NCBI GenBank assembly: GCA_051859245.1
Contig: JBHYGA010000004.1
Location: 384,001 to 448,000, forward strand
Origin: Gemmatimonadaceae bacterium
GTDB lineage: Bacteria; Gemmatimonadota; Gemmatimonadetes; Gemmatimonadales; Gemmatimonadaceae
Direction of reading: 5' to 3'
Length of the DNA stretch: 64,000 nucleotides
In this document: positions 3,829 through 55,533 of the stretch, piece by piece
Position numbering within the stretch: the first letter of the stretch is position 1
Layout: each line of letters begins with the position of its first letter
Program-made: the position numbers and the translations under genes
The notes under the pieces: model-generated
Told to the model about the DNA's origin: nothing
The model's input: only the letters and a program-made list of their open reading frames with translations
Database searches by the model: none

Positions 3829-3873
3829 CACCCTCGCATTCTGGTGCGACTTTGTTTGCCGTCCGAACAAAGT
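3825..3873 (+). promoter_or_regulatory. sigma70-type promoter (-35 TTGACA 3825-3830) overlapped by ROK-type operator ACTTTGTT-N9-AACAAAGT (3849-3873)
   Basis: Perfect 8-bp inverted arms. A near-identical copy lies at 17395-17419, and a ROK repressor is encoded in the locus. Confidence 0.8.
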
Positions 3874-3933
3874 TTGACTGGGACGGCTAATTGTCCCTCC
3901 CACCCGTCTGCTCCCACCCAGGACGAGGCCCGT

Positions 3934-6900
3934 ATGAGCCCGACTCGAACGCCCCTGACCCGATCACGGGTCAGGCGCCGGTTCGCCCCCGCCGCCGCGC
4001 TTGCCGCGGCGCTGTTGCTCTCGGCGACGCCGACCATCTCGGCTCAGACGCCTCAAAACATCCGTGTGGTCAGCGACGCGTCGGGGGCCCGACTGCAGGT
4101 GAACGGTCGGGACTTCATGGTGCTCGGCATGAACTGGGACTATTTCCCGATCGGCCAGAACTACGCCTACAACTTCTGGGGCCAGTCCGACGAGTTCATT
4201 CGCACGGCGCTGGATCGGGAAATGGCGCTGCTCAAAAGCATGGGCGTCAACACGATCCGTCAATACAACGGCGTGCCACCCAAATGGGTGCGATACATCT
4301 ACGAGAACTTTGGCATCTACACCGTACTGAATCACGCGGTGGGGCGATACGGCGTGACGGTAGGCGGCGCCTACAAGGCCAATACTGACTATTCAGATCC
4401 GCGCGTGCGCGAGCTGCTCAAGGCCGAAGTCGCGGCATTGGTGGAGCAGTTCCGCGGCACACCGGGTCTGCTCATGTACATGCTCGGCAACGAAAACAAT
4501 TACGGGTTGGAATGGAAATCGGCCGAGACGGAAAACCTGCCCGTTGGCGAACGGAACGCGGCCAAGGCGCGGTATTTGTATTCGCTCTTTGGCGAGATCA
4601 TTCGGGACATCAAAACGCGTGATCCCGCGGTGCCCGTGGCAATGGCGAATGGCGACCTGCAGTACATCGACATCATTGCCGCTGAGACCAAGGGTCTCGA
4701 CGTATTCGGCACGAACGTGTACCGCGGTATTTCGTTTGGAAATCTGTTTGCCGAAGTCAAGGAGAAACTCGGGCTGCCAGTGATGTTCACGGAGTTTGGC
4801 GCCGATGCCTACAATGCCAGAGAGCGTCGCGAAGACCAGCTTACGCAGGCACGCTATCTGCTTGGCCAGTGGCAGGAGATTTACGCGCAGTCTGCCGGCA
4901 AGGGCGGCGTTGGAAATGCGATTGGTGGCATGACCTTCCAATGGTCAGACGGGTGGTGGAAGGTAGGACAGGAAACCAATCTCGATGTGCAGGACAACGA
5001 CGCCGGATGGTCGAACGAGGCGTACCGCGAAGATTTCATGCGCGGTGACAACAACATGAATGAAGAGTGGTGGGGCATCATGGCCAAAGGCCCCACCGAT
5101 GCGCAGGGTCACTTTCAGCTGTATCCGCGCGCGGCGTACTACGCGTTGCAGCGCGCGTACGCGCTCGATCCGTACGGAACTGGTACCGACGCGGCACGTA
5201 TTCGCGCGCACTTCGGCGCGATTGCACCGGCGGCGATGGAACTGCTCGCCAACGGCAATCGTGCGGCGCGCGGTGCCGAGATCGGAGATCGGTATCGCAT
5301 TGCTGGCATGCGACTCGAACTGTCGAGCTTCAATACGGGTGGCAGCAACATCAGCACGCCGGCTGAGGGGACGACGCCGAGCCCAACGGCGCGGCCTGCC
5401 GTTCGCGGATTTGATCACCTCGAGTCGTATTTCGTTGATGTGGAAGCACGACCGGCGTCGAATGTGACCGCGATGCTGTCACTCAATGTGACGGGCAACA
5501 TCCCCGACAATCCGATCAACGAACTGTTCTACGAGAATCGCGCCCGCACACGCACGCTGCTGACCGATGGCGGACCGTCTGTAAGCACCGAGGGACTGGA
5601 GCGTTTGCGTGTGTACCGCGCGAGTTTGCGCTGGGACGAGCGCGATTTCCGTCTTGACGGTTTCTATCGTACCGGGCATTACCACTGGGGTTACGAAGGC
5701 GACTTCTTTGGCATGTACCGTGAAGCGAACTACGGCGCCAATATTGACATTTATGGTGGTGAAGCACCGCTCGGCGTGGAGTTCACCGGAAAGCGCGCAC
5801 TGTCGGGACTCAAGCTGGCCGTGGGTCCGGAGCTCTGGTGGGGCGCGAACCCCGCGGTACTCGCGAAGTACCGCAAGCAAGTGGGTCGCTTTATGGTGAC
5901 GGGTGTGTATCAGGAAGATCTGGCGCAACGGGGGGCGACGTCGAGCTCGTTCGCTATCCCGCAGCCGCAAGTGCGCGCCACCACGATGCACGTTGCAACC
6001 ACGGTGGGACCCGCTGGCGTGGAGCTGGGCGGTATCTGGGGTGGCAATACACGTGTGGGTCGCACGTTCCAGATTGCCGATGGTGAGCCCGGCAACTATC
6101 GCGTGCTGCAGGATCGTGTGAAAGACAGCGATGCACTTGGTGCGAAAGCCAAGATCACGATCTCAAGTGGCCGCTGGAACTGGTACGCGCAAGGCGCAGC
6201 GATGGGCCTGGTTGCTGACGGTGGACAAACGTCAACGATGACGTTCACCGGATGGGGACTGAAGGACAGCGGTATGGGCAATCAGTGGAATGCGCTGAGC
6301 GGCTTTACGTATTCTGTTGGCAACGTGCAGATTGCGCCCAACTTTTTGTGGCAGAAGCCGATTGTTGGTCCCGTGCCGAGTGATGTGCCTGCGCCCGGCC
6401 GACCGCGCAACATTCTTGATGATCCGTTCTCGGTGCGATGGAATCGTGAAACGGTTGGCGCGGAGTTGTTGCTCACGTTTGATCCCACGCCGGCGACGTA
6501 CATGCATCTGTGGGATTCCGACACGCGGGAAGACGCGCGCCTCGCGGGCACACTTGGATTCACGTATCGCCACTTGCCCACCACGCAGGACGCCGCGATT
6601 GGTATTCTCGCCGACGGACGCACGTTTTTTGCCTTTCCGGGCGCTGCACCAGCACAGGACCTGTGGGAAGTGCGCAGCCGCGTGGTATCGCGCGTAGGTC
6701 AGGATGTACGTGTGATCGCCAATCTGTTTGGCGGTACAGCACAGGCCAATGGTGACAGCGATCGTTTGCTGCGTCGTTACGGCGGCGAGCTGCGCGCGGT
6801 GCGGAATCAGATCAAAGTGGCTGCCTCGGCCAAGTTCAACGATTGGGGACCGTTCGACTATCATCGCGACTTCAACCTCACGTTCCCCGAGCAGTACATG

Positions 6901-7119
6901 GCCGATGTGTCATACGTGCTCGGCATTCCCAACTGGACAGACGCGCCGGCTACACGGTTTGGCATTCGTGGCACGTGGCGATCACTCGACCGTTTCTCGC
7001 CGCGGTATTGTCCGGCCGAAGTACCCAATGCACTGGGTACGCCCACGTGCGATCCTACTGCTCCGGGTGCGCGCGGTTCAGAGTGGGAGATTCGCACGTA
7101 CCTCACGGTTGGTTGGTGA
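3934..7119 (+). CDS. clan GH-A TIM-barrel glycosidase (GH2/GH158-like, probable beta-1,3-glucanase) fused to C-terminal putative outer-membrane beta-barrel
   Basis: Signal peptide ending ISA|Q. Acid/base motif 'LGNENNY' and nucleophile motif 'MFTEFGAD'. The C-terminal ~600 aa are rich in amphipathic beta strands and end EIRTYLTVGW. Confidence 0.8.
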   Translation: MSPTRTPLTRSRVRRRFAPAAALAAALLLSATPTISAQTPQNIRVVSDASGARLQVNGRDFMVLGMNWDYFPIGQNYAYNFWGQSDEFIRTALDREMALLKSMGVNTIRQYNGVPPKWVRYIYENFGIYTVLNHAVGRYGVTVGGAYKANTDYSDPRVRELLKAEVAALVEQFRGTPGLLMYMLGNENNYGLEWKSAETENLPVGERNAAKARYLYSLFGEIIRDIKTRDPAVPVAMANGDLQYIDIIAAETKGLDVFGTNVYRGISFGNLFAEVKEKLGLPVMFTEFGADAYNARERREDQLTQARYLLGQWQEIYAQSAGKGGVGNAIGGMTFQWSDGWWKVGQETNLDVQDNDAGWSNEAYREDFMRGDNNMNEEWWGIMAKGPTDAQGHFQLYPRAAYYALQRAYALDPYGTGTDAARIRAHFGAIAPAAMELLANGNRAARGAEIGDRYRIAGMRLELSSFNTGGSNISTPAEGTTPSPTARPAVRGFDHLESYFVDVEARPASNVTAMLSLNVTGNIPDNPINELFYENRARTRTLLTDGGPSVSTEGLERLRVYRASLRWDERDFRLDGFYRTGHYHWGYEGDFFGMYREANYGANIDIYGGEAPLGVEFTGKRALSGLKLAVGPELWWGANPAVLAKYRKQVGRFMVTGVYQEDLAQRGATSSSFAIPQPQVRATTMHVATTVGPAGVELGGIWGGNTRVGRTFQIADGEPGNYRVLQDRVKDSDALGAKAKITISSGRWNWYAQGAAMGLVADGGQTSTMTFTGWGLKDSGMGNQWNALSGFTYSVGNVQIAPNFLWQKPIVGPVPSDVPAPGRPRNILDDPFSVRWNRETVGAELLLTFDPTPATYMHLWDSDTREDARLAGTLGFTYRHLPTTQDAAIGILADGRTFFAFPGAAPAQDLWEVRSRVVSRVGQDVRVIANLFGGTAQANGDSDRLLRRYGGELRAVRNQIKVAASAKFNDWGPFDYHRDFNLTFPEQYMADVSYVLGIPNWTDAPATRFGIRGTWRSLDRFSPRYCPAEVPNALGTPTCDPTAPGARGSEWEIRTYLTVGW

Positions 7120-9335
7120 CCACGCGTAGCACAGGTCGTTCCGTGTCTGTGGAGCAGCAGATCACCGCGCTGCTTGCCCGCATGACACTGGACGAAAAGA
7201 TCGGGCAGTTGGCGCAGGTGAACGCGGCCGGCGGTCACGTGCCCGATCACCTGCGTGATGCGATTCGTGAAGGGCGCATTGGTTCGGTGCTGAATGAAGT
7301 GCACGTTGAGACCGTCAACGAGCTGCAGCGACTCGCGGTCCACGAAAGTCGGCTCGGTATTCCGCTGCTGATCGGGCGCGATGTTATTCACGGGTTCACT
7401 ACCGTATTTCCGATTCCGCTGGGGCAAGCGGCCAGCTGGAATCCTGCGTTGGTAGAAGAAGGCGCGCGCATCGCCGCGTACGAAGCGGCCGCGTGCGGTG
7501 TGAACCTGACGTTCGCGCCCATGATCGACATTGCGCGCGATCCTCGGTGGGGACGTGTGGCCGAATCACTCGGAGAAGATCCGCATCTTACCGGCGTGCT
7601 GGGCGCGGCCATGGTTCGCGGCTTTCAGGGTGACGACCTGGCACACGATGGCAGTATTGCCGCGTGTGCGAAACACTTTGCGGGCTACGGCGCAAGCGAG
7701 AGTGGTCGCGACTACAACACCACCAACATTCCCGAGAACGAGTTGCGAAACGTCTATCTGCCGCCGTTCAAGGCGGCGGTGGATGCGGGCGTCGCCAGTC
7801 TCATGACCTCGTTCTCCGATCTGGATGGTGTGCCTGCGTCGGCCAATACCTTCTTGCTCAGACAGGTGCTGCGCGACGAGTGGCGCGCCGATGCCATGGT
7901 GATCAGTGACTGGGAATCCATTCGGCAACTGGCCGTACACGGGTTCACGGAGAACGACCGCGAATCGGCGTACCAGGCGGCCACGGCGGGCGTTGATATG
8001 GAAATGGCCAGCACCACGTACGCTGATCATCTCGCGTCGCTTGTGCGCGAGGGGCGAGTGACTGAACAAACGGTCGATGCGTTGGTGCGGAATGTGTTGC
8101 GCGTGAAGTTTCGTCTGGGATTGTTCGACAACGCGCAAACGAATGCCTCCACGTATGCGCCCGCGGCAAACGCAGAACACTTGAAGGCCGCATACAACGC
8201 CGCGGTAGCGAGCGCGGTACTGCTCAAGAACGACGATTGGGCGCTGCCGCTCGATGTCGACTCGTTGGAGCGCATTGCCGTGATCGGCCCCCTGGCGGAT
8301 GATCCGTACGAGCAACTTGGCACGTGGATCTTTGATGGCGACGCGGCACACAGTCGCACGGTGCTGCAGAGCATTCGCGAGTATGTGGGCGACCGCGCTA
8401 CGGTAGAGTTTGCGCGCGGCGTGCACACCACGCGCAGTCGCGGTCACGACGCGTTTGACGACGCGGTCGCGCTGGCTGCACGCGCTGATGTAACGATCCT
8501 GGTGCTTGGTGAAGAAGCGATTCTGTCGGGCGAGGCGCACTGCCGCGCCGACATTACGTTGCCCGGTGCACAGCAGGCGTTGCTGGAAGCCGTGTCGGCC
8601 ACGGGCACCAAAGTGATTCTGGTGCTGATGGCCGGCCGGCCACTCGCGCTTGAGGAGGCCGTGCGACATGCGCCGGCGATTCTGTATATGTGGCACCCCG
8701 GGACCATGGGTGGTGCCGCGATCTCTGACTTGTTGTTCGGTGTAGCGTCGCCAAGTGGTAAACTACCGGTCACGTTTCCGCGGGTGACGGGGCAAATCCC
8801 TATCTATTACGCGCACAAACACACCGGCAAACCCGCCACGGCTGAGTCATTCATTCACATGGAAGACATTGAGCCGCGGGCGCATCAGGTGTCGGTGGGC
8901 AACACCTCTTTTCATCTGGATGCCGGCTTCACGCCGCTCTTTCCGTTCGGGTTTGGTCTGTCGTACTCGCATGTGGAGTACGAGCACATGCAGTGCAGCA
9001 CGGCAGTGCTCACCATGAGCGGCCGCATTACGATCAGTGCTGACGTGGTGAACGTTGGTCCGCGTGCTGTTGAGGAAGTGGTGCAGCTATATGTGCGCGA
9101 CCTCGTCGGCGATGTGACACGACCGGTGAAGGAACTCAAAGGGTTTACTCGTGTGCGCCTTGAACGCGGTGAACGTCGCCACGTGTCCTTCACACTGACA
9201 CCACGCGATCTTGCGTTTTACGGGCGGGCGCAGCGCCTGATCGTGGAGCCGGGTCGCTTTCATGTCTGGATTGGAGGCAGTTCCAATCCGGAGCTGCGCG
9301 CTGAGTTCACGTTGGTCGACGACACGACGCACTAG
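7116..9335 (+). CDS. bglX: GH3 beta-glucosidase (BglX-like) with FnIII domain, no signal peptide
   Basis: 'MTLDEKIGQL', 'DVIHG', 'RDPRWGR', 'KHFAGYG', 'ISDW', 'PSGKLPVTFP', 'EEVVQLYVRD...RPVKELKGF'. GTGA overlap with the upstream stop. Confidence 0.93.
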   Translation: MTTRSTGRSVSVEQQITALLARMTLDEKIGQLAQVNAAGGHVPDHLRDAIREGRIGSVLNEVHVETVNELQRLAVHESRLGIPLLIGRDVIHGFTTVFPIPLGQAASWNPALVEEGARIAAYEAAACGVNLTFAPMIDIARDPRWGRVAESLGEDPHLTGVLGAAMVRGFQGDDLAHDGSIAACAKHFAGYGASESGRDYNTTNIPENELRNVYLPPFKAAVDAGVASLMTSFSDLDGVPASANTFLLRQVLRDEWRADAMVISDWESIRQLAVHGFTENDRESAYQAATAGVDMEMASTTYADHLASLVREGRVTEQTVDALVRNVLRVKFRLGLFDNAQTNASTYAPAANAEHLKAAYNAAVASAVLLKNDDWALPLDVDSLERIAVIGPLADDPYEQLGTWIFDGDAAHSRTVLQSIREYVGDRATVEFARGVHTTRSRGHDAFDDAVALAARADVTILVLGEEAILSGEAHCRADITLPGAQQALLEAVSATGTKVILVLMAGRPLALEEAVRHAPAILYMWHPGTMGGAAISDLLFGVASPSGKLPVTFPRVTGQIPIYYAHKHTGKPATAESFIHMEDIEPRAHQVSVGNTSFHLDAGFTPLFPFGFGLSYSHVEYEHMQCSTAVLTMSGRITISADVVNVGPRAVEEVVQLYVRDLVGDVTRPVKELKGFTRVRLERGERRHVSFTLTPRDLAFYGRAQRLIVEPGRFHVWIGGSSNPELRAEFTLVDDTTH

Positions 9336-9366: not shown

Positions 9367-11139
9367 ATGACCGCAAGACTCGCGGATCGCGAGACAATCG
9401 CCTACGTGGAAGCGCTGCTTTCCCGTCTTACGCTCGAGCAGAAAGTCGGGCAAATGATGCAGCCCGAACGCATGGCCATCACGCCAGACGAAGTGGCGGA
9501 GTACCACATCGGCTCCGTGCTCAGCGGTGGTGGATCGGCGCCGGGTGCGAATACGGCCGCCGACTGGATCGCGATGAACGACGCGTACTGGATGGCGTCC
9601 ATGCGCAACGCACCAGGCCGCGTACCGATTCCGCTGTTATACGGCGTGGATGCGGTACACGGCCACGCCAACGTGCTCGGCGCGACGGTTTTTCCGCACA
9701 ACATCGGGCTTGGCGCCACGCGCGATCCTGACTTGATGGAACGCATCGCGCAGATCACAGCGCGCGAGGTGCTGGCCACCGGTGTGGACTGGACGTTTGC
9801 GCCGACACTCGCCGTGGCCAAGCACATCTACTGGGGGCGCACGTACGAGAGTTTTTCGGATGATCCGGCACTTGTGTCGTCGTATGCCGGCGCGCTCGTG
9901 CGCGGACTGCAGCAGGGTTTCGGTCGCGATGGTGTTGTAGCGTGCGCCAAGCACTGGGTTGGTGACGGCGGTACGACCAACGGCCGCGACCAGGGCAACA
10001 CTGCGATCTCCGAAGAGGAACTGGAGCGCACGCACATGTCGCCCTATTTGCCAGCGCTGAAAGAAGGAGTCCTCACGGTGATGGCGTCGTTCAACAGCTG
10101 GAACGGCGTAAAATGTCACGGCAATCGCTACCTGCTCACCGAGGTTCTCAAGGAGCGCCTGGGCTTTGACGGGTTTGTGATTTCCGACTGGGACGGTGTG
10201 GACTACTTGTCGGATGATCCCGCAGAAGCCGTGGCGATGGCGGCAAACGCTGGCGTTGACATGTTCATGGTCTCAGTCGAGTGGAAGCGCTGTCTGGCAC
10301 ACTTGCTGGAGCACGCGCGGTCGGGTGTTGTGCCCATGTCGCGCATTGATGATGCCGTGCGCCGCATTCTCACCGTGAAGCATCGCTACGGATTGTTCGA
10401 TCGACCGCGTCCCGCGGAGCGGTATTGGTCGACGGAGCCGTGTCTTGGCGCCGCCGAACATCGCGAGGTGGCGCGTGAAGCGGTTCGCAAATCGCTAGTG
10501 CTACTGCAGAACAACAACGGAGTACTGCCGCTGGATCGTTCGGCGCGCATTCTCGTGGCGGGCAAGAACGCGGACAACCGCGGGCGTCAATGCGGTGGCT
10601 TTACCGTGGCGTGGCAGGGCACGAGTGGCAACGAACAGATCGTCGGTGGTACCTCAATCTGGGAAGGCATCAAGCAAGTTGCGCCGCATGCGCACCTCAG
10701 CGTGGATGGCAGCGCGGCCAATGCCGCAGCGCACGATGTGGCCATCGTGGTGATCGGCGAACGGCCGTACGCGGAAGGCATGGGCGACATTCGTCCGCCC
10801 GGTACCGTCGCCCCAGGCTCAAGCCCTGAAGGGCGCACGGCCAAACTTGATGCGTATGGTCAAACCATTGAGCACGCCGTCTCGCATCCCGAAGATCTGG
10901 CCACGATTCGTGCCATTACGCGTCAGGGCATACCGGTGATTGCGGTGCTCGTATCTGGTCGCCCTCTCATTGTAGATGCCGAGCTGTCAGAGACGTCGGC
11001 GTTTGTGGCCGCGTGGTTGCCCGGCTCAGAAGGTCAGGGAGTGGCTGATGTGTTGTTTGGTGATCATCCGTTCACCGGCGTGCTGCCGTTTGCGTGGCCG
11101 CATATTTCGACGCGTTGGCCGCGTGGTTACGGGCTGTAG
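9367..11139 (+). CDS. GH3 exo-beta-glucanase/beta-glucosidase (barley ExoI/ExoP-like), no signal peptide
   Basis: 'QKVGQMMQPER', 'GSVLSGGGS', 'YGVDAVHGH', 'WGRTYESFS', 'CAKHWVGDGGT', 'ISDW', 'GERPYAEG', 'AAWLPGSEGQG'. Confidence 0.92.
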   Translation: MTARLADRETIAYVEALLSRLTLEQKVGQMMQPERMAITPDEVAEYHIGSVLSGGGSAPGANTAADWIAMNDAYWMASMRNAPGRVPIPLLYGVDAVHGHANVLGATVFPHNIGLGATRDPDLMERIAQITAREVLATGVDWTFAPTLAVAKHIYWGRTYESFSDDPALVSSYAGALVRGLQQGFGRDGVVACAKHWVGDGGTTNGRDQGNTAISEEELERTHMSPYLPALKEGVLTVMASFNSWNGVKCHGNRYLLTEVLKERLGFDGFVISDWDGVDYLSDDPAEAVAMAANAGVDMFMVSVEWKRCLAHLLEHARSGVVPMSRIDDAVRRILTVKHRYGLFDRPRPAERYWSTEPCLGAAEHREVAREAVRKSLVLLQNNNGVLPLDRSARILVAGKNADNRGRQCGGFTVAWQGTSGNEQIVGGTSIWEGIKQVAPHAHLSVDGSAANAAAHDVAIVVIGERPYAEGMGDIRPPGTVAPGSSPEGRTAKLDAYGQTIEHAVSHPEDLATIRAITRQGIPVIAVLVSGRPLIVDAELSETSAFVAAWLPGSEGQGVADVLFGDHPFTGVLPFAWPHISTRWPRGYGL

Positions 11140-11253: not shown

Positions 11254-12804
11254 CTATGTCGCCAACGCCGGTCCAGGATTGCCACGTCGTGCTTCGAGCT
11301 GCTCTCGCACTTCGCGCGCTCGTGCTTCGGTGATCGGATACGTTGCGACGGCCCAGATGGCGAGGCCCGACGTCACCATGGGTATGACGGCATCACACAA
11401 CCGCATCAGGAAGATCGTGTTTTCGGTTTGCGTACCGCCGAGCGAGACATCAAAACCGGTCGCGTTCAGCAGATAGCCGCCGGCCGCGAGCGCTGCGGCC
11501 ATGCCAAGCTTTACCACCCACCAGAAGATCGAGCCGAACATTCCTTCGCGCCGCTGATAGGTCTCCACTTCATCAGCGTCTACAACATCGGCAATCATTG
11601 ATCCCATGAGCGTGAACAATCCGCCAAGCCCAAACGCCATCAGTGGCACCGGCAGCATCAGCAACATCGGATACTTCGGATTATAGCAGAACCACTTGAG
11701 ACCGTAGCCAAGAATGGAAAGGCCTGTGCTCACAAAGAATGCTTTGCGTTTGCCGATTCTTGTGCTGAGCCAGGTAATGAAAAAAATGACGCCGAACGTT
11801 GAGGCCGCGCCGAGCGTACCGGCGTATCCAGCGTAGCGCGCACCCAACTCCTGATCGCCGCCAAACACGTAGTAGATGATCACGTACGTCTGAAACGACG
11901 AGATCATGATGAAGCCATTGAACACGAGGAATGTGGCCACGCACAACTTGATGAACGGCTTTGAGCGCAGCGTAGTGGCAAAGCCCTTGCCGAACTCTTT
12001 CATGTTCCGGCCAAACGCGGCGAAGCGGGATTCGCGCTTGGTCGGCACGTTGGGGTCTGCCGACGCCATCACAAATCGCTCGCGCAGGAAGATTGCGGGA
12101 ATGACTCCGATCATGATCGTGGCGACACCGATACCGATGGCCAGGCCTTTGGCACCGGCGATCTGATTGGGAAACCACGGTTTGTACGTCATGATCCAGA
12201 GAAACCATGGCGACACCAGATACGCGAGCTGACCAATGAAATTCTGCACGCCCATCAGGCGCGTGCGCTCGTGATAGTCGGGTGTGAGTTCGTAACCCAG
12301 CGCAACCCATGGCGTTGCGTAGACTGTGTACGCCAGGTAAAAAATGTTCGAGCCGGTCAAAAAGAACCAGAAATAGAACGACTCACTTCTTCCGCCAGGC
12401 AGCTGCCACAACAGGGCGAAGATGATACCAGACGCAATGGCCCCGGCGAAGATGTACGGGCGACGCCTTCCCCAACGCGACGATGTGTTATCCGAGATGT
12501 AACCCATCATCGGATCAGTGAGCGCGTCGAGAATCCGCGGAAGCGCACCGAGCAAGCCCACCAATGCGGGATTCATGCCCAGTCCGAGATTGAGCACGAT
12601 GACCATGCCACCAATAGCGGCCGCGAGCAGGTTGTTTACGAACGCACCCGACCCGTAGGCGAGCTTTCGCGCAAACGAGATGCGATCCGCCGCGGCGGTC
12701 GAGTACTGCGCGGTGAACCCAGTGTGCCCCGAATCGTCGATGCGCGCGTGCCACGCGGCAATGGCAAGCTTCCAGAGGTTGCGCCCGCGCGAAGCGATAC
12801 TCAT
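11254..12804 (-). CDS. MFS glycoside-pentoside-hexuronide (MelB-like) sugar transporter
   Basis: 'DALTDPMMGYISDNTSSRWGRRRPY', 'ELTPDYHERTRL', 'ADVVDADE...RREGMF'; about 12 hydrophobic helices. Confidence 0.92.
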   Translation of the reverse strand: MSIASRGRNLWKLAIAAWHARIDDSGHTGFTAQYSTAAADRISFARKLAYGSGAFVNNLLAAAIGGMVIVLNLGLGMNPALVGLLGALPRILDALTDPMMGYISDNTSSRWGRRRPYIFAGAIASGIIFALLWQLPGGRSESFYFWFFLTGSNIFYLAYTVYATPWVALGYELTPDYHERTRLMGVQNFIGQLAYLVSPWFLWIMTYKPWFPNQIAGAKGLAIGIGVATIMIGVIPAIFLRERFVMASADPNVPTKRESRFAAFGRNMKEFGKGFATTLRSKPFIKLCVATFLVFNGFIMISSFQTYVIIYYVFGGDQELGARYAGYAGTLGAASTFGVIFFITWLSTRIGKRKAFFVSTGLSILGYGLKWFCYNPKYPMLLMLPVPLMAFGLGGLFTLMGSMIADVVDADEVETYQRREGMFGSIFWWVVKLGMAAALAAGGYLLNATGFDVSLGGTQTENTIFLMRLCDAVIPMVTSGLAIWAVATYPITEARAREVREQLEARRGNPGPALAT

Positions 12805-13592
12805 GGTACGGTCTCGTACACCCGCACCCAGTCCACCAACATGGTTTGCGGAAAGCGCGTTTGTGCATCAGGCGCACCCACAAACGTGCCACCAACGGCC
12901 ACGTTGAGAATGATGTAGAACGGATGGTCAAACACCCACTCACCTCGCACATCACCGCGGCGCACGGTGTGGTAGAGTGTGCCGTCGACGAAGAAATCAA
13001 TGCGGGCATCAGACCATTCGATGCTGAACTCATGGAAATCGTCGTCGAAACGCGCCTGCTGTAACTCGTAGCGCCGCGTGATCGCGTTGCCGCCAGAGTA
13101 TCCCGGTCCATGCACACTACCGAGCACAACCCGCGGCTCCTGCCCGCGGTATTCCATCACATCGATTTCACCAGTCTGCGGCCAGCCGACAACATCAATG
13201 TCTGCACCCAACAACCAGAACGCGGGCCAAATGCCCTGACCAACCGGCAACTTGATGCGCGCTGCAATGCGACCGTACTGAAACTCGCGCCGCCCTTTGG
13301 TGGTGATGCGAGCCGATGTATAGGCCCGTCCTTCGAATGATTCCGCACGAGCGGTAATGGCCAGATTGCCGCTGCCATCAAGCGACGCGTTAGCGGCCCG
13401 ATTGGTGTCGTACTCGAGCTGTGCGTTACCCCAATCGGTGCCCACATCGAACTGCCAGTTGGCAGCGCTGGGCAACGTACCGGCCGTGCCTTCAAACTCA
13501 TCTTCCCAAACGAGCGTCCACGACGGACTGGGATCAGTGCACCCGAAGAGCGAAGCGGCAAGCGCCGCGAGTAGTACAGCCTGTCGGGTCAT
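12801..13592 (-). CDS. GH16 endo-beta-1,3-glucanase (laminarinase) lipoprotein
   Basis: Lipobox LFGC, 'WEDEFEG', 'GIWPAFWLLG', catalytic 'GEIDVME', 'FYIILNVAVGG', 'MLVDWVRVY'. Confidence 0.93.
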   Translation of the reverse strand: MTRQAVLLAALAASLFGCTDPSPSWTLVWEDEFEGTAGTLPSAANWQFDVGTDWGNAQLEYDTNRAANASLDGSGNLAITARAESFEGRAYTSARITTKGRREFQYGRIAARIKLPVGQGIWPAFWLLGADIDVVGWPQTGEIDVMEYRGQEPRVVLGSVHGPGYSGGNAITRRYELQQARFDDDFHEFSIEWSDARIDFFVDGTLYHTVRRGDVRGEWVFDHPFYIILNVAVGGTFVGAPDAQTRFPQTMLVDWVRVYETVP

Positions 13593-13613: not shown

Positions 13614-14864
13614 CTAGCGCGCGCCGATGGTGGGAAAGAGCGACGGATCGTTCAGCGCCGCTTCAAGCACAAGCGTGGCGGCGCCAACAGCAACGCCGAG
13701 TGGGCCGAGTTCACTGTGCCGGATTTCAGACGCGGCAACAGCGCTCACAAACGTCCGACGAAGCACAACTTCACGTAGCGGACCGATCAGTCGGTGACCA
13801 ACGCGCGTCAGCCCACCGCCAATAATGACGGCGGCAGGATTCATCAGGTTGAGCAGCCCCGCGATGGCAATACCGAGGTATTCCGCCGCTTCGCACACCA
13901 CCTGGACCGCGAGCGGATCGTCAGTGATCGCGGCTGATTCGATCGCTTCAATCGTGAGTGACGATGTGCCATGCAGCGATGACGCAGGAAACTCCGGTAA
14001 CAGCGCGCGCGCGCGTTCGACCAAGGCATTCGCACCAACGAATGTGACGAGACATCCCCGGTTGCCGCAGTTGCACACGGCGCCGCGCGGATCAATCGCC
14101 ACGTGACCGATTTCTCCGGCGACGCCGGTAGCTCCGCGCCGCACGCGTCCATCAATCACATGCCCCGACCCAATGCCGGTTGCCACCTTGATGTACGCGA
14201 AGTCATTAAAACCACGGCCCGCTCCCCACCACTGCTCCGCCAACGCGCCAAGGTTCGCGTCATTGTCAATGAAAAGCGGCAGCGCAAACTGCGTTTGCAA
14301 CGCTTCGAACCCGTTGCGTCCACCCCAGTCGGGCATAGCCAGCGGTGAGAGGCGCTCCGGGTGACGCGGATCAACCGGGCTTGGCATGGCGATGCCAATG
14401 CCGAGTAAGCGATTGGGTGCACCGTGCCACTGCGCAATGCAGCGTGCAATCAGCTCGGCCACCAGCGTGCGGGTTCCGGCGGGATCGCGTCGTACAGGCC
14501 ATTCGCGATACTCAGAAGCGAGCACGCGGCCGCGCAGGTTGGTGAGCACTACCGTGATGTGCGTCGCGCCAACGTCCACGCCAATAATGCCGCAGGCATC
14601 ATCCTGAAACTCGAGATTGATCGGTCGTCGTCCGCCGCGCGATTCGCCAATGCCCGCTTCGGACACGAGTTCGGTGGCGATCAGGAATCCCACCAACTCC
14701 GACACGGTGGAGCGCGAGAGATCTTCACGACGCGCGATTTCGGCGCGCGAGATGGTGCGCTCCTTCCAGATCAGTCGCAGTACCGCATCCGCCAACGCGG
14801 ACGGACGCGGTACAACAGTCGGGGCAACACCAACGTCGGCGTCACTCATGATCTGGTCAGTCAT
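13614..14864 (-). CDS. ROK family transcriptional repressor (XylR/NagC-like)
   Basis: N-terminal HTH 'ISRAEIARREDLSRSTVSELV', 'GGRRP', 'DNDANLGALAE', 'GEIGH...CNCGNRGCL'. GGAGA RBS. Confidence 0.92.
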   Translation of the reverse strand: MTDQIMSDADVGVAPTVVPRPSALADAVLRLIWKERTISRAEIARREDLSRSTVSELVGFLIATELVSEAGIGESRGGRRPINLEFQDDACGIIGVDVGATHITVVLTNLRGRVLASEYREWPVRRDPAGTRTLVAELIARCIAQWHGAPNRLLGIGIAMPSPVDPRHPERLSPLAMPDWGGRNGFEALQTQFALPLFIDNDANLGALAEQWWGAGRGFNDFAYIKVATGIGSGHVIDGRVRRGATGVAGEIGHVAIDPRGAVCNCGNRGCLVTFVGANALVERARALLPEFPASSLHGTSSLTIEAIESAAITDDPLAVQVVCEAAEYLGIAIAGLLNLMNPAAVIIGGGLTRVGHRLIGPLREVVLRRTFVSAVAASEIRHSELGPLGVAVGAATLVLEAALNDPSLFPTIGAR

Positions 14865-14907
14865 CGTGTCTCCGTTCAGGCACGGAGAGCACGTGCCGAG
14901 GTCCATG

Positions 14908-17328
14908 TCATTTGTGCAAGAGCACGTTGTCGACATAGACCGTATTCGGATCGGCCACCAGGATCAACTGCGCGAGATGGCCCCTGGTGGTGAGTCCGGT
15001 GAACTGCGAGAGCGGTACATCAAGGCGCGTCCACTGCCCGGTGCGGAGCCCTGGCGTGGTCGCGGCCGTGAGCGTGATCTCATGCTCGCGGTCATCACCA
15101 CCACCGAACGCGCCATTCGCGCCAAAGTCCACCAGCTTGATTTTGAACGTTGCCGGCGCTGCGGTGGGATCTGCTGTCCAGATATCCAGCGAGAAGTGCG
15201 TCATGGCCGTGGCATTGATCGGGCTCGACGTGAACTCAATCCCGGCAAACACCAGATTCGTGTACTTCTTCACCGTGTTGCCAGCAATCTGCACGTCTTC
15301 CACATCAGCGTTGTCCCACTGGGCCGACCACGTGTTCACCGTGACGTTGGTGTAGCTGTCGCTGAACAGTGAAATCACATCGGCCGCGGCAAATGTTGGC
15401 GCGGGCGCTGCGGTTGTTGGCGCGGTCGGCACCACGTTGGAATAGAAATACAGGTTGTCGAGGTAGACCGTGTTCGGATCACTCACGAAGATCAGCTGCG
15501 CCAGATGACCGCGTGTGACCAGCCCGGTGAACGCACTGAGCGGAATGTCCAGACTCGTCCACTCGCCCGTGCGGATACCAGGCGTGGACGCGGCGTCGAG
15601 CGTGAGTTCATGCTCAACATCATCGCCGCCACCGAACGCACCGTTGGCGCCAAAGTCCACCAGCTTGATCTTGAAGATCGCGGGCAACGCAGTGGCATCG
15701 GGGGTCCAGAAGTCCACATGGAAACCCGTCATCGCGGTGGCGTTGACTGTTGGTGCCGTGAACTCGATGCCGGCGAAGGTGAAGTTTGTGTATTTCTTGA
15801 CGTTGTTGCCGGCGATCTGCACGTCTTCAAGATCGGCGTCGTCCCACGGCGCTGACCACGTGGACACCGGCACGTTGGTGTACGTGTCGCTGAAGAGCGA
15901 GATCACACTCGACGCCGGACGTGTGGGAGCCGGCGCGGCGGTGGTTGGAACAGACACCGGTGGTGGCGGCGCCTTGTAGAAATACAGATTATCGAGATAC
16001 AGCGTGGAGCTGGAACTCGTAATGATCATTTGCGCGAGGTTGCCGCGCGCGTTGAGGCCCGTGAACGAGGAGAGCGGAATCTCCACCGTGCTCCACGCGT
16101 TGGCCGTGAGCCCCGACGACACCGTCACTTCATGTTCGCTGTCGTCACCGCCGCCAAACACACCGTTCGCACCGAAGTTGACGAGCTTGACGCGGAACGA
16201 GGAGGTGTTGCGAAGGAAGACATTGAGATGCAGATGCGTCATCGCCGCTGCGTTGACGGTCCGCGTGATGAACTCGATGCCAGCGAACGAGAGATTCGCG
16301 TATTTCTTGGTGTCGTTGCCCGCGATCTGGACATCGGACACATCGGCCATGTCCCAGTCGGCCGACCATTTATCGACGGGCACGTTGGTGTACGCGTTGC
16401 TGAACAGCGAGACGACATCGGCCGCCACGCGTGTTGGTGTGGGCGCCGCCGTGGTTGGCGGGCTGAGCGCGTTGATTGTGACGGCACCCGCGGCCGCTGT
16501 TTCGCCGAGCGCCGCGCTCACCGTGGCGGAGCCCGGTCCGACTACCGAAATGGCGCCGGTTGGTGTTACCGCTGCAACGGCCGCATTTGATGAGCGAAAG
16601 GTGAAATACGCGGCGGCCGCTTCGACCACCACGTCACGCCCGTCCACATCGAAGGTGACCGTGGTGCCGGTCACATCGACTGTGGCGCCGACTTCGCCGC
16701 TGAGTGTGGCCGACGCGATGGCGGGTCGGGTGTTGCGAATCGTGCCCAGTGTCTCAAAACGGATTTCATCAATCCAGAGATCGTACCCCACGCCGTTCTC
16801 CGGCCCCTCGGCAAAGAAGAACATGCCGCGCTCTTCCATGAGTTTGCTGGCCAGTGGAAGTGGAATCACCACTTTTTGCCAGGAGGTTGTGAGCGGAATA
16901 CCGCCGCGCTGGGCGGTAAAGCGCGATTCGCCGGTGTTATCGTTGGCGAAGCCGGCCACGTCGAGCGTGGCACTGCGGCTGGCCCGCGCGTAGAACGTGA
17001 GCGCGTCATAGGCACTCAGGTCGCGCGCCACGTTGGCGACGAAGGCACCGCCGGCGTACGAACCGGCCGGATCGCCTACCGATGGAATCGTGATTTTGAG
17101 CGCCGATGTGCCGCGGAACTTGACGCCGGGATCGATCGCGACCGCGTCCACCTTGGAGCCGGCGAACGCCTGGAATGAGACGCCTGCTGCGTATCCGTCG
17201 CCGAAGATATCCGGTTCGCTTGGGAAGGGCGCAAGATCGAGTGAACTGATATCGCGGCTGCAGGCGGCGAGGATCAGCGACACCCCAACCAACGCGAGAA
17301 CGTGGCGTGAGGACGATCGCGGGTGCAT
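14908..17328 (-). CDS. surface glycan-binding lipoprotein: N-terminal CBM-like domain, Big_2 domain, three tandem carbohydrate-binding-like repeats
   Basis: Lipobox LAAC. Big_2 segment 'FRSSNAAVAAVTPTG'. Three ~165-175 aa repeats starting 'TTAAPxPT..A.DVISLFS..YTNV.V..WSA.WD'. No catalytic motif seen. Confidence 0.75.
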   Translation of the reverse strand: MHPRSSSRHVLALVGVSLILAACSRDISSLDLAPFPSEPDIFGDGYAAGVSFQAFAGSKVDAVAIDPGVKFRGTSALKITIPSVGDPAGSYAGGAFVANVARDLSAYDALTFYARASRSATLDVAGFANDNTGESRFTAQRGGIPLTTSWQKVVIPLPLASKLMEERGMFFFAEGPENGVGYDLWIDEIRFETLGTIRNTRPAIASATLSGEVGATVDVTGTTVTFDVDGRDVVVEAAAAYFTFRSSNAAVAAVTPTGAISVVGPGSATVSAALGETAAAGAVTINALSPPTTAAPTPTRVAADVVSLFSNAYTNVPVDKWSADWDMADVSDVQIAGNDTKKYANLSFAGIEFITRTVNAAAMTHLHLNVFLRNTSSFRVKLVNFGANGVFGGGDDSEHEVTVSSGLTANAWSTVEIPLSSFTGLNARGNLAQMIITSSSSTLYLDNLYFYKAPPPPVSVPTTAAPAPTRPASSVISLFSDTYTNVPVSTWSAPWDDADLEDVQIAGNNVKKYTNFTFAGIEFTAPTVNATAMTGFHVDFWTPDATALPAIFKIKLVDFGANGAFGGGDDVEHELTLDAASTPGIRTGEWTSLDIPLSAFTGLVTRGHLAQLIFVSDPNTVYLDNLYFYSNVVPTAPTTAAPAPTFAAADVISLFSDSYTNVTVNTWSAQWDNADVEDVQIAGNTVKKYTNLVFAGIEFTSSPINATAMTHFSLDIWTADPTAAPATFKIKLVDFGANGAFGGGDDREHEITLTAATTPGLRTGQWTRLDVPLSQFTGLTTRGHLAQLILVADPNTVYVDNVLLHK
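14911..16460 (-). repeat. three intragenic tandem domain repeats (~510-530 nt each)
   Basis: Recurrent 'DVQIAGN..KKY.N..FAGIEFT', 'KLVDFGANGAFGGGDD.EHE' and 'YLDNLYFY'. Confidence 0.9.
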
Positions 17329-17394: not shown

Positions 17395-17445
17395 GCTTTG
17401 TTTGGCTAGCGAACAAAGTATGCGGCTCAAGGCGGACGCTGTCAA
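17395..17445 (-). promoter_or_regulatory. sigma70-type promoter (TTGACA-N17-CATACT) overlapped by ROK-type operator (17395-17419)
   Basis: Plus-strand GCTTTGTTTGGCTAGCGAACAAAGT matches the 3849 site. The minus-strand -35 is at 17445-17440 and the -10 at 17422-17417. Confidence 0.8.
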
Positions 17446-41106: not shown

Positions 41107-41955
41107 ATGACCGCTGACAACGCGTTGTTGATTGCGCTTGGTCTGTTCGCGCTCGTGGGCAGCGGTGCCGCCGTGTACTGGTGGCTGAACCGTACGCCAT
41201 CAGGGTACCGACGAGATCGGGACGCTGAGCTGCCGCTGTTTTCGGTTTCGATGCCCGACTCGCGTCGCACGCCACCGCGTCCCGCCACGCCGCCGGCGGC
41301 CGCGCCAGTGGTGCCCAAGTCCGCCGGAAAGGCGCCTGAGACGCCGGTGGCTGTTCCTGCGGCGGCGGCGCCCAAGCCGGCGAAGAAAAGTTCGGAGCCG
41401 AACATTATTGAGATTTCGACCGCAACGGCCGCGGCGCCGGTTGCCACGCCGGTTGCCACACCGGTTGCACCGCCGGTCGCCACTCCAGTCGCCACGCCGC
41501 CTGCGGCGGCAGGAGTCACGAATCCCGCGCCCACGCCGGAGCCGGTTCTCGCCCACGGCGTGCCTGGATCCGTGGTCGAAGGGCATCTGTTGCGGTTCAG
41601 CGTGCCTCAGGAGGGCACGCTGCAGTTTCTGCCCGGACGTCTCGAAGTGTCGGGCGGTCTGGACGCCGGACGTGAGATCCGCTTTGTCCGCGTTCCTGGC
41701 CCGGATGGGACACAGGTCACATTTGGGCGTAGCGAAGGCCCGGCCTATCGCCACATTCAATTGCGCGAGGCCACGGTGAGCCGATTGCACGCCCGCCTCA
41801 CGCTGCGTGAGGGCACGTGGCATCTGACCAACCTCTCGTCGACCAACCCCGCCGTATATAACGGACGCATCTTGAACACCGGCGAAGAACAGCCGCTGTC
41901 CGATGGTGACCGGATCGAGATGGGCGAAGTACTTTTCGGTTTCCGTAGCCGATAA
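41107..41955 (+). CDS. membrane-anchored FHA domain protein
   Basis: N-terminal TM helix, Pro/Ala/Thr linker, FHA motifs 'FGRS', 'VSRLHARL', 'NLSSTN', 'LSDGDRIEMG'. Confidence 0.9.
   Translation: MTADNALLIALGLFALVGSGAAVYWWLNRTPSGYRRDRDAELPLFSVSMPDSRRTPPRPATPPAAAPVVPKSAGKAPETPVAVPAAAAPKPAKKSSEPNIIEISTATAAAPVATPVATPVAPPVATPVATPPAAAGVTNPAPTPEPVLAHGVPGSVVEGHLLRFSVPQEGTLQFLPGRLEVSGGLDAGREIRFVRVPGPDGTQVTFGRSEGPAYRHIQLREATVSRLHARLTLREGTWHLTNLSSTNPAVYNGRILNTGEEQPLSDGDRIEMGEVLFGFRSR
41437..41496 (+). repeat. 12-nt tandem repeat x5 encoding PVAT/PVAP
   Basis: ccggttgccacg ccggttgccaca ccggttgcaccg ccggtcgccact ccagtcgccacg. Confidence 0.8.
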
Positions 41956-41997
41956 TTCAGCGCGCCGCAGGGCGCCGAAGGGCAAGGACTCTGTGGG

Positions 41998-44649: not shown

Positions 44650-44650
44650 G

Positions 44651-53872: not shown

Positions 53873-55533
53873 GTATGGATCAAACTGCAACACGCCCCCT
53901 CGTGGAACGCACGTTCACCCAATGCGGTCGCGCGCTTCGCTCCGTGTGCAGCGCCATGTTCGCCTTCACACTCGCCGCGTGCTCCGCCAGTGTGACGGAC
54001 ACGCCACAAGTCGCGCAGGTGCAGCTCACACCGCCCTCCGCCAGCGTTGAAGCCGGACGTACCCTGGTCTTGGTCGCACGTCCAACAGATGCCAGCGGCG
54101 CGGCGATCACCGCACGACAGATCACCTGGTCGAGCAACAACACGCAAGTTGCCACCGTGTCTGCGGCTGGTGTGGTGTCGGCGCGCGCCACTGGTCAGGC
54201 GCGCATCGCCGCGAGTGTTGACGGACAGAGTGCGGTGACCACGATTACGGTCACGGCGCGCGAAGTGGCAAGTGTGCAAGTCGCGCCGGTATCCGTCTCT
54301 GTGCGCGTGAATCGTACCGCACAGGTGAGTGCCAGCGCGCTCGATGCAGACGGTGTGGCGCTTCCTGGCAAAACGTTCGTGTGGAGCAGCAGCAATACGG
54401 CCGTCGCAACGATCACGCAGGCCGGCGTGATCACGGCTGTTGCGCCTGGTGCGGCAACAATCACGGCCACATCCGATGGTCGCAGCGGTCAGGCCGCCGT
54501 AACCGTGACACCGGAACCTGTCGCGTCGGTGACGATTGCGCCCACGCGCGATACGCTCGCTGTTGGCACGGATCGCACGTTCGTTGCGACCGTGCGCGAT
54601 GAAAGTGGCGCGGCGCTCACGGGTCGCACCGTGGTGTGGAATGTGAGTGATCCCGCAATCGCGACGGTGTCATCAACCGGTGTTGTTACGGCACGTGCTC
54701 CAGGCACAGTGACCGTCGTTGCCGTGAGTGAAAACCGTGTGGGCCAGGCCACGCTGGTGGTGCTGCAACGTCTCGCCAACGCGGTCATCCTCACGCCGTC
54801 GTCTGCCACGCTCGAAACAGGCGCCACACTGCAGCTTGTCACGCAAGTGACCGATCCCTCGGGCAATCTGATTCCAGGTCGCGTGGTGACGTACACGAGC
54901 AACAACACTGCGGCCGCAACAGTGAGCAACGCCGGGTTGGTGACCGCGCGTGCTCCGGGTGTGGCACGCATTACCGCAACCAGCGATGGTCGATCGAGCG
55001 TTGCAACAATCACGGTGATTGCGGTGCCGGTGAGTACCGTGCAGGTGTCACCACTCACCAACGACGTGCTGACCGGGTCAACTGTTCCGCTTACCGTGCA
55101 GGTACGTTCTGCCACGGGCACACTGCTCACGGGGCGTACCGTCACGTGGACGAGTGGTGCACCGAGCGTGGCCACGGTATCGGCAAGCGGTGTCGTATCG
55201 GCTGTCTCACCGGGTGTGGTTGTGATCGCCGCGACGGTTGATGGCATTAGCGGATTTGCCACCGTGACCGTGCGTGCACCAACGGTCGCCGCTGTTGTGA
55301 TCACGCCGAATGCGCCGTCACTCGCGGTCGACGCGCGTGTGTTGCTTTCGGCATCCGTGCGCGACAGTAACGGCAACGTGCTCACCGGACGCGCCGTCAC
55401 GTGGCGCAGCAGCAATGAACAAGTCGCCTTTGTGTCGAGTACCGGCACAGTGATCGCCATCAGCGCCGGAACGGCAACCATTACGGCGACCTCGGAGGGA
55501 GTCAGTGCTTCGATTCTTGTCACAGTTCGCTAA
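53869..55533 (+). CDS. Big_2 (Ig-like group 2) repeat lipoprotein, ~6 domains
   Basis: Lipobox LAAC; repeated 'V.WSSSNT.VATV...G.V.A..PG.ATITAT..G'. ATGA overlap with the giant gene. Confidence 0.88.
   Translation: MSMDQTATRPLVERTFTQCGRALRSVCSAMFAFTLAACSASVTDTPQVAQVQLTPPSASVEAGRTLVLVARPTDASGAAITARQITWSSNNTQVATVSAAGVVSARATGQARIAASVDGQSAVTTITVTAREVASVQVAPVSVSVRVNRTAQVSASALDADGVALPGKTFVWSSSNTAVATITQAGVITAVAPGAATITATSDGRSGQAAVTVTPEPVASVTIAPTRDTLAVGTDRTFVATVRDESGAALTGRTVVWNVSDPAIATVSSTGVVTARAPGTVTVVAVSENRVGQATLVVLQRLANAVILTPSSATLETGATLQLVTQVTDPSGNLIPGRVVTYTSNNTAAATVSNAGLVTARAPGVARITATSDGRSSVATITVIAVPVSTVQVSPLTNDVLTGSTVPLTVQVRSATGTLLTGRTVTWTSGAPSVATVSASGVVSAVSPGVVVIAATVDGISGFATVTVRAPTVAAVVITPNAPSLAVDARVLLSASVRDSNGNVLTGRAVTWRSSNEQVAFVSSTGTVIAISAGTATITATSEGVSASILVTVR

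Follow-up and report, generated by a model that had tools for sequence, protein, structure and literature searches.

The DNA analysed here (the window) is a stretch of 64,000 nucleotides from a Gemmatimonadaceae bacterium (assembly GCA_051859245.1, contig JBHYGA010000004.1, positions 384,001 to 448,000 of the forward strand). The subject of this report is a gene on its + strand, at 3934..7119, which encodes a 1061-aa precursor composed of a signal peptide, a GH158-like TIM barrel, a helical linker and a C-terminal region predicted to be an outer-membrane β-barrel. The open reading frame (ORF) list places the start of the gene at GTG 3844 (ORF 3844-7119, + strand). The true start is instead most likely ATG 3934, because this codon has GGACGAGG upstream and opens a Sec-type signal peptide (MSPTRTPLTRSRVRRRFAPAAALAAALLLSATPTISA, followed by QTPQ), as in all homologues inspected, and residues are numbered from it throughout (1061 aa). 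The stop codon lies at 7117-7119, right after EIRTYLTVGW. The signal peptide, read by eye, spans residues 1-37 (3934..4044, + strand), with predicted cleavage after ISA and before QTPQ, and holds no lipobox cysteine; a basic n-region and a hydrophobic core are found in every full-length homologue inspected. A Tat signal, considered for the RRRF in the n-region, was rejected since the RR motif is not conserved across the homologues. The mature protein has two cysteines only (1026 and 1039, window 7009-7050), which are 13 positions apart and belong to the last long loop of the barrel (RYCPAEVPNALGTPTCDP); both are kept in close homologues and could form a disulfide within this loop.

The enzyme domain

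Residues 38-410 (4045..5163, + strand) comprise an N-terminal hairpin and a (β/α)8 glycoside hydrolase (GH) domain, assigned from a sub-threshold PF02836 match, a profile match to 6pal_A and Foldseek matches. The PF02836 (GH2 TIM barrel) match, in the N-terminal third of the protein, has an E-value of 0.0047 and 16.6 bits, below the Pfam cut-off of 21, and neither a single-sequence PDB search (phmmer) with the whole protein nor NCBIfam gave a match. A family profile built from 27 relatives matched BuGH158 (6pal_A) in the PDB with an E-value of 3.5e-7 over 195 residues and GH158(Pro) with 4.1e-5, and the alignment to 6pal_A places LLGNENNYG over GIGNEIELG and FTEFG over ITEWG. Foldseek with the full-length model returned TIM-barrel enzymes alone, all on the enzyme half, with 6pal_A at the top (E 6.9e-13, TMt 0.58), followed by GH158(Pro), the laminarinase LaGH157 and GH2 enzymes; the Foldseek identities are 12-16%. 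An earlier reading of this DNA from its letters (hereafter the sequence-only reading) had called the enzyme GH2/GH158-like, a description borne out by the profile match, with both catalytic motifs aligned, and by the top structural match.

Two glutamates, E187 (GNENNYG) and E287 (FTEFG), are the candidate acid/base and the candidate nucleophile, respectively, and each is conserved in 43 of the 46 full-length rows of the alignment; we take these roles from clan GH-A, in which the acid/base glutamate follows strand 4 (in an NE pair) and the nucleophile strand 7. The enzyme half is predicted to be a retaining clan GH-A glycosidase and a distant homologue of the GH158 β-1,3-glucanases, and it may be a distant GH158 or represent a new GH-A family. 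Its β-1,3-glucanase activity we infer from the neighbouring genes only. A TonB box at IRVVSDA was considered and rejected, this strand belonging to the N-terminal pre-barrel hairpin common to BuGH158 and being modelled at a predicted local distance difference test (pLDDT) score of 94-97.

The predicted C-terminal barrel

The enzyme domain is followed by a linker of ~45 residues (411-453; 5164..5292, + strand), in which the AlphaFold2 models place helices at 420-428 and 432-450, and by residues 454-1061 (608 residues; 5293..7116, + strand), assigned from AlphaFold2, Foldseek and junction lengths as a predicted outer-membrane β-barrel of ~26 strands. Across 46 full-length homologues the linker measures 36-70 residues (median 45); its sequence, with a Gly/Ala-rich helix, is poorly conserved. 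The second helix (432-450, 19 residues) stops three residues before strand 1. The sequence-only reading had set the start of the barrel at 5284, which is residue 451, three residues ahead of the first predicted strand (454). Sequence searches gave no match over the barrel, neither in Pfam (at E up to 1, nothing beyond residue ~470) nor in NCBIfam nor in the PDB (phmmer; the family profile matched the N-terminal part only). Pfam searches with 23 diverse relatives likewise left the barrel unmatched, save for DUF6882 and YvbH_ext, which at E ~0.005 are sub-threshold and were regarded as noise.

For the full-length protein, AlphaFold2 with a 59-row alignment gave a model with a mean pLDDT of 89.0 and a predicted TM-score (pTM) of 0.61. 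Residues 430-1061, modelled on their own with 67 rows, reach a pLDDT of 91.9 and a pTM of 0.88 and consist of one helix and then ~26 antiparallel strands of 6-18 residues, joined as hairpins into one array that is predicted to be closed; soluble β-sandwich domains, named beforehand as the outcome that would speak against a barrel, did not appear. All ten peptides that had first suggested strands are found in the translation of 3844-7119, and each lies on a strand of the model (strands 2, 4, 5, 6, 14, 15, 16/17, 22, 25 and 26). In a Foldseek search with the C-terminal model, outer-membrane barrels make up 44 of the 46 PDB matches among those listed, none of the listed matches is a carbohydrate-binding module (CBM), and the remaining two, of porin length, are entries named “artificial metalloprotein”. 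The listed barrels belong to the porins, TonB-dependent transporters (TBDTs), ushers, LptD and an Mtr complex chain, and include Campylobacter MOMP (the best, E 5.6e-11), BtuB, PfeA, FimD, OmpF, the chitoporin ChiP (7vtz), Occ channels, LptD (8h1s_A) and the Mtr complex chain (6r2q_B); TMq is 0.17-0.37 throughout, with BtuB and PfeA at 0.32-0.37 and 6r2q_B joint-highest at 0.37. The C-terminal ~600 residues are thus confidently predicted to form a large outer-membrane β-barrel, as the sequence-only reading had proposed, and one of an undescribed family.

The topology of the model is asymmetric. In the 26-strand map the odd-to-even junctions take up 265 residues and the even-to-odd junctions 61; all eight tight turns (2-4 residues) are at even-to-odd junctions, and the long loops (20, 37, 34, 18, 26, 31, 29 and 29 residues) are at odd-to-even ones, the lone exception to the alternation being the s18-s19 junction, which with 20 residues is long yet lies on the short-turn side. 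Long loops on one side and short turns on the other are the usual asymmetry of outer-membrane proteins, and the short-turn side, on which both ends of the barrel lie, is presumably the periplasm. The alternating polarity of the strands, also remarked on earlier, was measured as the Kyte-Doolittle difference between strand faces, which has a mean of 2.19 over the 26 model strands against 1.55 ± 0.24 (maximum 2.35) in 1000 within-strand shuffles.

The last strand, EIRTYLTVGW (7087..7116, + strand), gives the protein a β-signal-like C-terminus, and this ending is conserved among the homologues. In an alignment of 59 of them the last residue is W in 16, F in 14, Y in 5, L in 9, I in 7, M in 3, R in 3 and K in 2, that is, aromatic in 35, L, I or M in 19 and R or K in 5, and the protein stops precisely at the end of the last strand in 54. 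The most conserved segment of the barrel is the loop between strands 5 and 6 (residues 579-612, TGHYHWGYEGDFFGMYREANYGANIDIYGGEAP; 5668..5769, + strand), which is 34 residues long (34-39 across 46 rows), is rich in H, Y, W, F, D and E and contains the nearly invariant W585, G589, D590, F592, E597, D605 and P612. The loop, which may lie in the lumen, is a candidate constriction or sugar-contact loop.

Language-model features place the barrel nearest, among named clusters, to DUF6029 (24 of 30 named matches, at 0.92-0.93), treponemal Tpr and Porin_4, a similarity to be read as a lead only; the DUF6029-type matches share 143-161 of 256 features, where 170 is typical of true family members. Membership of DUF6029 (PF19494) was rejected, the Pfam match being absent at E up to 1, and so was a relationship to DUF5916 (hhalign probability 0.3%, E 0.21).

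Family spread and stand-alone barrels

With the C-terminal part as query, at least 5,068 proteins (clusters at 90% identity) were found at E <= 1e-3 among 8,000 candidates scored, and a library at 50% identity holds 469 clusters. The best 120 relatives are mostly 1040-1076 aa long, and apart from “hypothetical” their source names (“GH2 TIM barrel-domain containing protein”, “glycosidase”, “beta-galactosidase”) come from the catalytic domain alone, as had been anticipated. In species-representative genomes a relative is encoded at at least 593 of 601 pattern matches, from which 80 loci were kept (a 27-row alignment was used to find the loci). These 80 loci belong to Gemmatimonadota (best 70%), Krumholzibacteriota, Eisenbacteria, Ignavibacteriota, Calditrichota, Fibrobacterota, Rhodothermales, many Bacteroidota and Myxococcota. 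In marine Gammaproteobacteria the fused form occurs alongside stand-alone barrels of ~575-600 aa.

In a FastTree phylogeny of the barrel part (77 rows, nine fragment-length rows being left out), 14 stand-alone proteins group together (support 96) in a single clade that lies within the fused forms; several other rows consisting of a barrel alone are probably truncated reads. An own signal peptide is present in six of the seven stand-alone N-termini examined (P0165 is the one without), and in P0292, P0313 and P0320 the mature part opens directly with a strand, with no preceding helix, and the end is F. The stand-alone barrels also retain the motif of loop 579-612. Because such a clade exists, mostly with signal peptides of its own, the barrel is predicted to be an autonomous, exported unit. 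All proteins of the clade (P0188, P0292, P0313, P0320 and relatives) are named “hypothetical protein”, some of their clusters having 50-60 members. Another relative, P0228, carries an N-terminal CBM_4_9 domain.

Two operons and a shared palindrome

In the window the barrel gene heads a + strand operon with two GH3 genes. The first of them, β-glucosidase-like (7116..9335, + strand; PF00933 at 6.9e-76, PF01915, Fn3-like), has a likely GTG start at 7116, so placed that this codon and the TGA with which the barrel gene stops overlap in GTGA (7116-7119), an arrangement that suggests translational coupling of the two; the second (9367..11139, + strand) likely starts at ATG 9367, and in neither is a signal peptide visible. 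The opposing operon, on the - strand, consists of a gene for a CBM-repeat lipoprotein (14908..17328, starting at M40 of the listed ORF, lipobox LILAAC), a ROK-family regulator with a winged-helix domain recognised by Pfam (13614..14936), a GH16 glucanase (12801..13592; PF00722, 7.8e-27) with a lipoprotein signal (ASLFGC, followed by TDPS), and an MFS_2 sugar transporter of the glycoside-pentoside-hexuronide type (11254..12804; PF13347, 1.7e-59).

Each operon is preceded by a copy of a 25-bp palindrome, ACTTTGTT-N9-AACAAAGT. The first copy (3849..3873) lies 61 nt upstream of ATG 3934 and the second, with 1 mismatch (17395..17419), ~67 nt upstream of the lipoprotein gene; the two matches in the window compare with 0.08 expected, and 0 of 100 shuffles reach two. 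In 23 of the 80 loci, from several phyla (including L011, L015, L016 and L044), the exact core precedes the homologous gene. The palindrome is likely the operator of the ROK regulator, its candidate binder.

Gene context across loci

The neighbours of the barrel gene were counted with tblastn in the 43 loci that span 20 kb or more (long loci). The CBM-repeat lipoprotein is present in 41 of these 43 and GH16 in 39, followed by the major facilitator superfamily (MFS) transporter (25), ROK (18) and GH3 (17), and GH17 or GH30 is also present in seven loci. In Bacteroidota the order on one strand is barrel gene, lipoprotein, GH16, and then GH17, GH30 and a protein of ~1150 aa that Pfam leaves unmatched. 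Such unmatched proteins, of ~1140-1180 aa, recur downstream in the Bacteroidota loci, beside GH17 and GH30 (L046:17189-20617, L064:17294-20710, L072:17986-21441, L062:14579-18049, L074:15457-18936 and others); by size and context they may resemble GH149 β-1,3-glucan phosphorylases. No glycosyltransferase or synthase was found in the conserved module of the seven loci that were scanned fully. Proteins with C-terminal sorting domains of the type IX secretion system (Por_Secre_tail) adjoin the module in two Ignavibacteriota loci (L036:6737-9360 and L044:20988-22904), and FlgD_ig-like domains end several Krumholzibacteriota and Fibrobacterota neighbour proteins.

Plug or TonB-receptor domains occur in only two of the 43 long loci (L021 and L065), in a survey that took in ORFs of 120 aa or more in seven loci (89 ORFs) and, for the remaining 36, those of 600 aa or more lying outside known genes (74 ORFs). 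The barrel itself was also considered as a TonB-dependent transporter of the SusC kind and rejected, PF07715 and PF00593 being unmatched at E up to 1. A crude lipobox pattern is found in 38 of 48 orthologues of the CBM-repeat lipoprotein and in 31 of 50 of GH16. Among the lipobox-positive proteins from Bacteroidota, at least two acidic residues stand just past the cysteine in 11 of 18 CBM-repeat lipoproteins and in 11 of 14 GH16 proteins, a feature that we take to be the surface-export signal of this phylum.

The CBM-repeat lipoprotein as a candidate partner

The lipoprotein of the window has an N-terminal β-sandwich-like domain, a Big_2-like region and three CBM-like repeats of ~170 aa (pattern VISLFSD.YTNVPV..WSA.WD.AD..DVQIAGN..KKYTN..FAGIEF..). 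The repeats match no Pfam or PDB sequence family, the PDB search giving a weak S-layer match only (E 0.004). The orthologous lipoproteins have one to four repeats, with residues ~60-491 conserved, and in the Bacteroidota loci their gene is directly downstream of the barrel gene.

A complex of the barrel with lipoprotein residues 24-300 (numbered from the mature start) was predicted with alignments made for this analysis, so that the benchmark counts given here hold roughly. The pair obtained an ipSAE of 0.52 (0.52, 0.53 and 0.52 in the runs) against 0.00 for the best control, the runs agreed in at least 91% of contacts and the partner had a pLDDT of at least 85. In the benchmark the ipSAE mark is reached by 116 of 157 solved complexes and by 2 of 215 mismatched pairs, and at ipSAE <=0.60 by 18 of the 157 solved complexes and both passing mismatches. 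The modelling lends weak support to a barrel-lipoprotein complex, and the lipoprotein is a candidate surface glycan-binding partner of the barrel.

Proposed role and alternatives

The protein is probably a two-part enzyme-channel of the outer membrane, belonging to a laminarin utilisation module without SusC/SusD and working independently of TonB. After Sec export, BAM would insert the C-terminal 608 residues as a ~26-strand barrel. The CBM-repeat lipoprotein would then capture β-1,3-glucan at the surface and the GH16 lipoprotein would cut it, and the resulting oligosaccharides would diffuse through the barrel, with no need of TonB and past the aromatic/acidic loop 579-612, to meet the fused glucanase at the periplasmic mouth. 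The MFS_2 symporter would move the products to the cytoplasm, where the two signal-less GH3 enzymes would finish them, and the ROK regulator and the shared palindrome would tie the two operons together. The sequence-only reading had supposed that cleavage is coupled to import, which we infer as well, from the gene context.

That the enzyme domain sits on the periplasmic side is somewhat better than an even call, because the N-terminus of the barrel is on the short-turn side, because the stand-alone barrels need no threaded helix and GH16 already covers cleavage at the surface, and because the N-terminal domains of other large barrels are periplasmic.

Several points weigh against this proposal as a whole or in its parts. 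The search for TBDTs covered ORFs of at least 600 aa only in 36 of the 43 long loci, and SusD-like genes were sought in seven loci only. The alternation of polarity exceeds that of the shuffles modestly and, with the low TM-scores of the Foldseek matches, the likeness of the model is to barrels as a class, with no close solved relative. The full-length pTM of 0.61 leaves the relative placement of the enzyme and barrel domains undefined, a 26-strand barrel would need a plug, of which none was identified, and the score of the barrel-lipoprotein complex falls in a band in which, absent a good prior, a pass is “more often wrong than right”. As regards the placement of the enzyme, strand 1 comes directly after a 19-residue helix, and autotransporters thread their passenger outward by means of a helix before the barrel. 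The CBM_4_9 domain at the N-terminus of P0228 would fit a surface-exposed enzyme, and the GH158 of Bacteroides uniformis is discussed, to go by the title of the paper, as an enzyme of the cell surface (PMC7157763).

These last points are shared by an unlikely, if still credible, alternative in which the barrel mainly serves as an anchor, helix 432-450 crosses the lumen in the manner of type Va autotransporters, and the enzyme stands outside, beside the GH16 and CBM lipoproteins, cleaving laminarin at the mouth of its own pore. It would account for a helix that ends three residues before strand 1 and for a linker of fairly constant length (median 45, range 36-70 in 46 rows), as well as for the added CBM_4_9 of P0228. 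It would also suit the nearest characterised enzymes, which by Foldseek and the title just mentioned are endo-laminarinases of Bacteroides surface systems (PMC7157763). However, the barrel has ~26 strands and not 12, and the Pfam autotransporter domain is absent at E up to 1, so that “autotransporter-like”, as the sequence-only reading had it, does not stand as a statement of membership. The helix, moreover, is poorly conserved and Gly/Ala-rich and could not fill so wide a barrel, the stand-alone barrels open directly with a strand and have no such helix, and the GH16 lipoprotein, in 39 of 43 loci, already provides endo-cleavage at the surface. We know of no precedent for a TIM barrel as an autotransporter passenger.

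More doubtful still is an extension of the proposal, in which the barrel, the CBM lipoprotein and the GH16 lipoprotein would form a stable machine, a TonB-independent analogue of the SusCD “utilisome”. Here the lipoprotein would cap or plug a 26-strand translocon, laminarin chains or long oligomers would be threaded to the tethered periplasmic GH158-like glucanase, and cleavage, possibly processive, would act as a ratchet in place of the proton-motive force. If true, it would stand as a second way of achieving “selfish” glycan uptake, and a phylogenetically broad one, extending over the phyla of the Fibrobacterota-Chlorobiota-Bacteroidota (FCB) group, the Myxococcota and marine Gammaproteobacteria.

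Transport in the opposite direction is very improbable. The barrel would in that case be a polysaccharide-secretion porin of the PgaA, BcsC, PelB, AlgE or Wzi type and its fused hydrolase would trim an outgoing β-glucan exopolysaccharide, as BcsZ and PelA do. In favour of export is the language-model similarity, which is highest to DUF6029, a family that HHpred links to Wzi-type barrels near polysaccharide-export genes (PMC9603273). However, PF19494 is unmatched at E up to 1 and the shared features stay under the typical number (143-161 of 256, against 170), the conserved partners are catabolic (GH16, GH3, GH17, GH30, the MFS_2 importer, ROK and the CBM lipoprotein), and in the seven fully scanned loci the conserved module includes no synthase or glycosyltransferase.

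Least probable of all is that the C-terminal region, within a glucanase that is secreted or periplasmic, is made up of soluble β-sandwich or CBM-like domains and forms no membrane barrel: its lack of a Pfam, NCBIfam or PDB sequence match and the modest excess of polarity alternation, a property that β-sandwiches share, would agree with a soluble fold, but the model of hairpin-connected strands of 6-18 residues is confident (pLDDT 91.9, pTM 0.88), outer-membrane barrels account for 44 of the 46 matches listed by Foldseek and CBMs for none, the strict alternation of long loops with tight turns is broken only at s18-s19, the protein ends on a strand whose last residue is hydrophobic and mostly aromatic (R or K in 5 of 59), and the related stand-alone proteins are made of a signal peptide and the barrel domain only.

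Comparison with known systems

The proposed enzyme-channel module has its closest counterpart in the Bacteroides SusC/SusD β(1,3)-glucan loci and the marine laminarin polysaccharide utilisation loci (PULs), with which it has in common the GH16 lipoprotein, the multi-CBM lipoprotein, a GH158-like domain, GH3, GH17, GH30 and an MFS importer. The Bacteroides loci have GH16 and GH158 at the surface, surface glycan-binding proteins (SGBPs) and GH3 in the periplasm. The lipoprotein of the window is laid out like the SGBP of C. forsetii, which is described as Ig-like modules with repeated CBMs (bioRxiv 10.1101/2023.09.07.556657). In contrast to those loci, SusC or another TBDT is not found in 41 of the 43 long loci, within the ORFs surveyed, the GH158-like domain is fused to the barrel and is not part of a lipoprotein, and uptake would be passive and not energised through TonB.

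Sugar porins (LamB/ScrY, ChiP, OprD/Occ) are likewise TonB-independent channels of the outer membrane within catabolic sugar loci, as the barrel would be, and loop 579-612, with its aromatic and acidic residues, could act as their constriction loop does. Membership of the sugar porins (LamB, OprD/ChiP) was nevertheless rejected, since ~26 strands are predicted and not 16-18, no Pfam porin family is matched and there is an extra enzyme domain of 370 residues. The type Va autotransporters, among which the esterase EstA is an example with an enzymatic passenger, show the same order of parts (signal peptide, enzyme, helix, C-terminal barrel, terminal aromatic), but here there are stand-alone barrels with neither helix nor passenger, and ~26 strands compare with 12.

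In LptD-LptE and MtrB-MtrA a 26-strand barrel encloses a partner. The predicted number of strands is similar and a lipoprotein is conserved alongside the barrel (in 41 of 43 loci), whereas no sequence relationship to these systems was found in the PDB searches and the function is unrelated. PgaA/PgaB, BcsC/BcsZ and PelB/PelA also have a hydrolase at the periplasmic side of a polysaccharide-conducting barrel with an N-terminal periplasmic domain; those systems export and are encoded in synthase operons, whereas here the locus is catabolic and the enzyme is covalently fused. The nearest published idea, among the open-access papers and preprints searched, is an MFS-GH17 fusion that takes part in laminarin use in Formosa and is said by its authors not to have been described in other bacteria (PMC6246565); it is an inner-membrane MFS permease, in contrast to the outer-membrane β-barrel predicted here.

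In five loci, a protein with a DUF5916 domain is encoded upstream of the barrel gene, at a distance of a few kb (L046:1697-3916, L011:7267-9618, L015:6420-8801, L016:7285-9705 and L026:6370-8967), that of L046 also having a CBM9 domain. The CBM9-DUF5916 proteins combine a carbohydrate-directed N-terminal domain with a long C-terminal domain whose sequence is unrelated to the barrel and which we take to be a predicted barrel too; the DUF5916 proteins may be another architecture of the kind “sugar-binding domain plus large barrel”.

Significance

Bacterial laminarin uptake is at present explained almost wholly by TonB-dependent transporters of the SusC/SusD type. The open-access papers and preprints searched gave no description of an outer-membrane barrel with a fused glycoside hydrolase that acts in glycan uptake; what is new here is the barrel family and possibly a class of glycan-utilisation locus, specific porins and enzyme-barrel fusions being already known. 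A family of more than 5,000 clusters at 90% identity, found in at least eight phyla and annotated by its enzyme only, appears to carry an outer-membrane barrel of its own, in laminarin loci devoid of SusC/SusD. Should import run through the barrel, an entire class of glycan-utilisation loci would escape PUL prediction with susCD as marker, feeding on β-glucan would have a defined mechanism in Gemmatimonadota, Ignavibacteriota and others, and the fusion of enzyme and channel would offer a simple model for coupling hydrolysis to transport across the outer membrane without TonB. The barrel domain merits a family model of its own.

Elsewhere in the window, and unrelated to this finding, the + strand of 41107-55533 encodes an FHA-domain protein, a Ser/Thr kinase-RCC1 fusion, a 3073-aa Big_2/Big_1 Ig-repeat protein and a 554-aa Ig-repeat protein.

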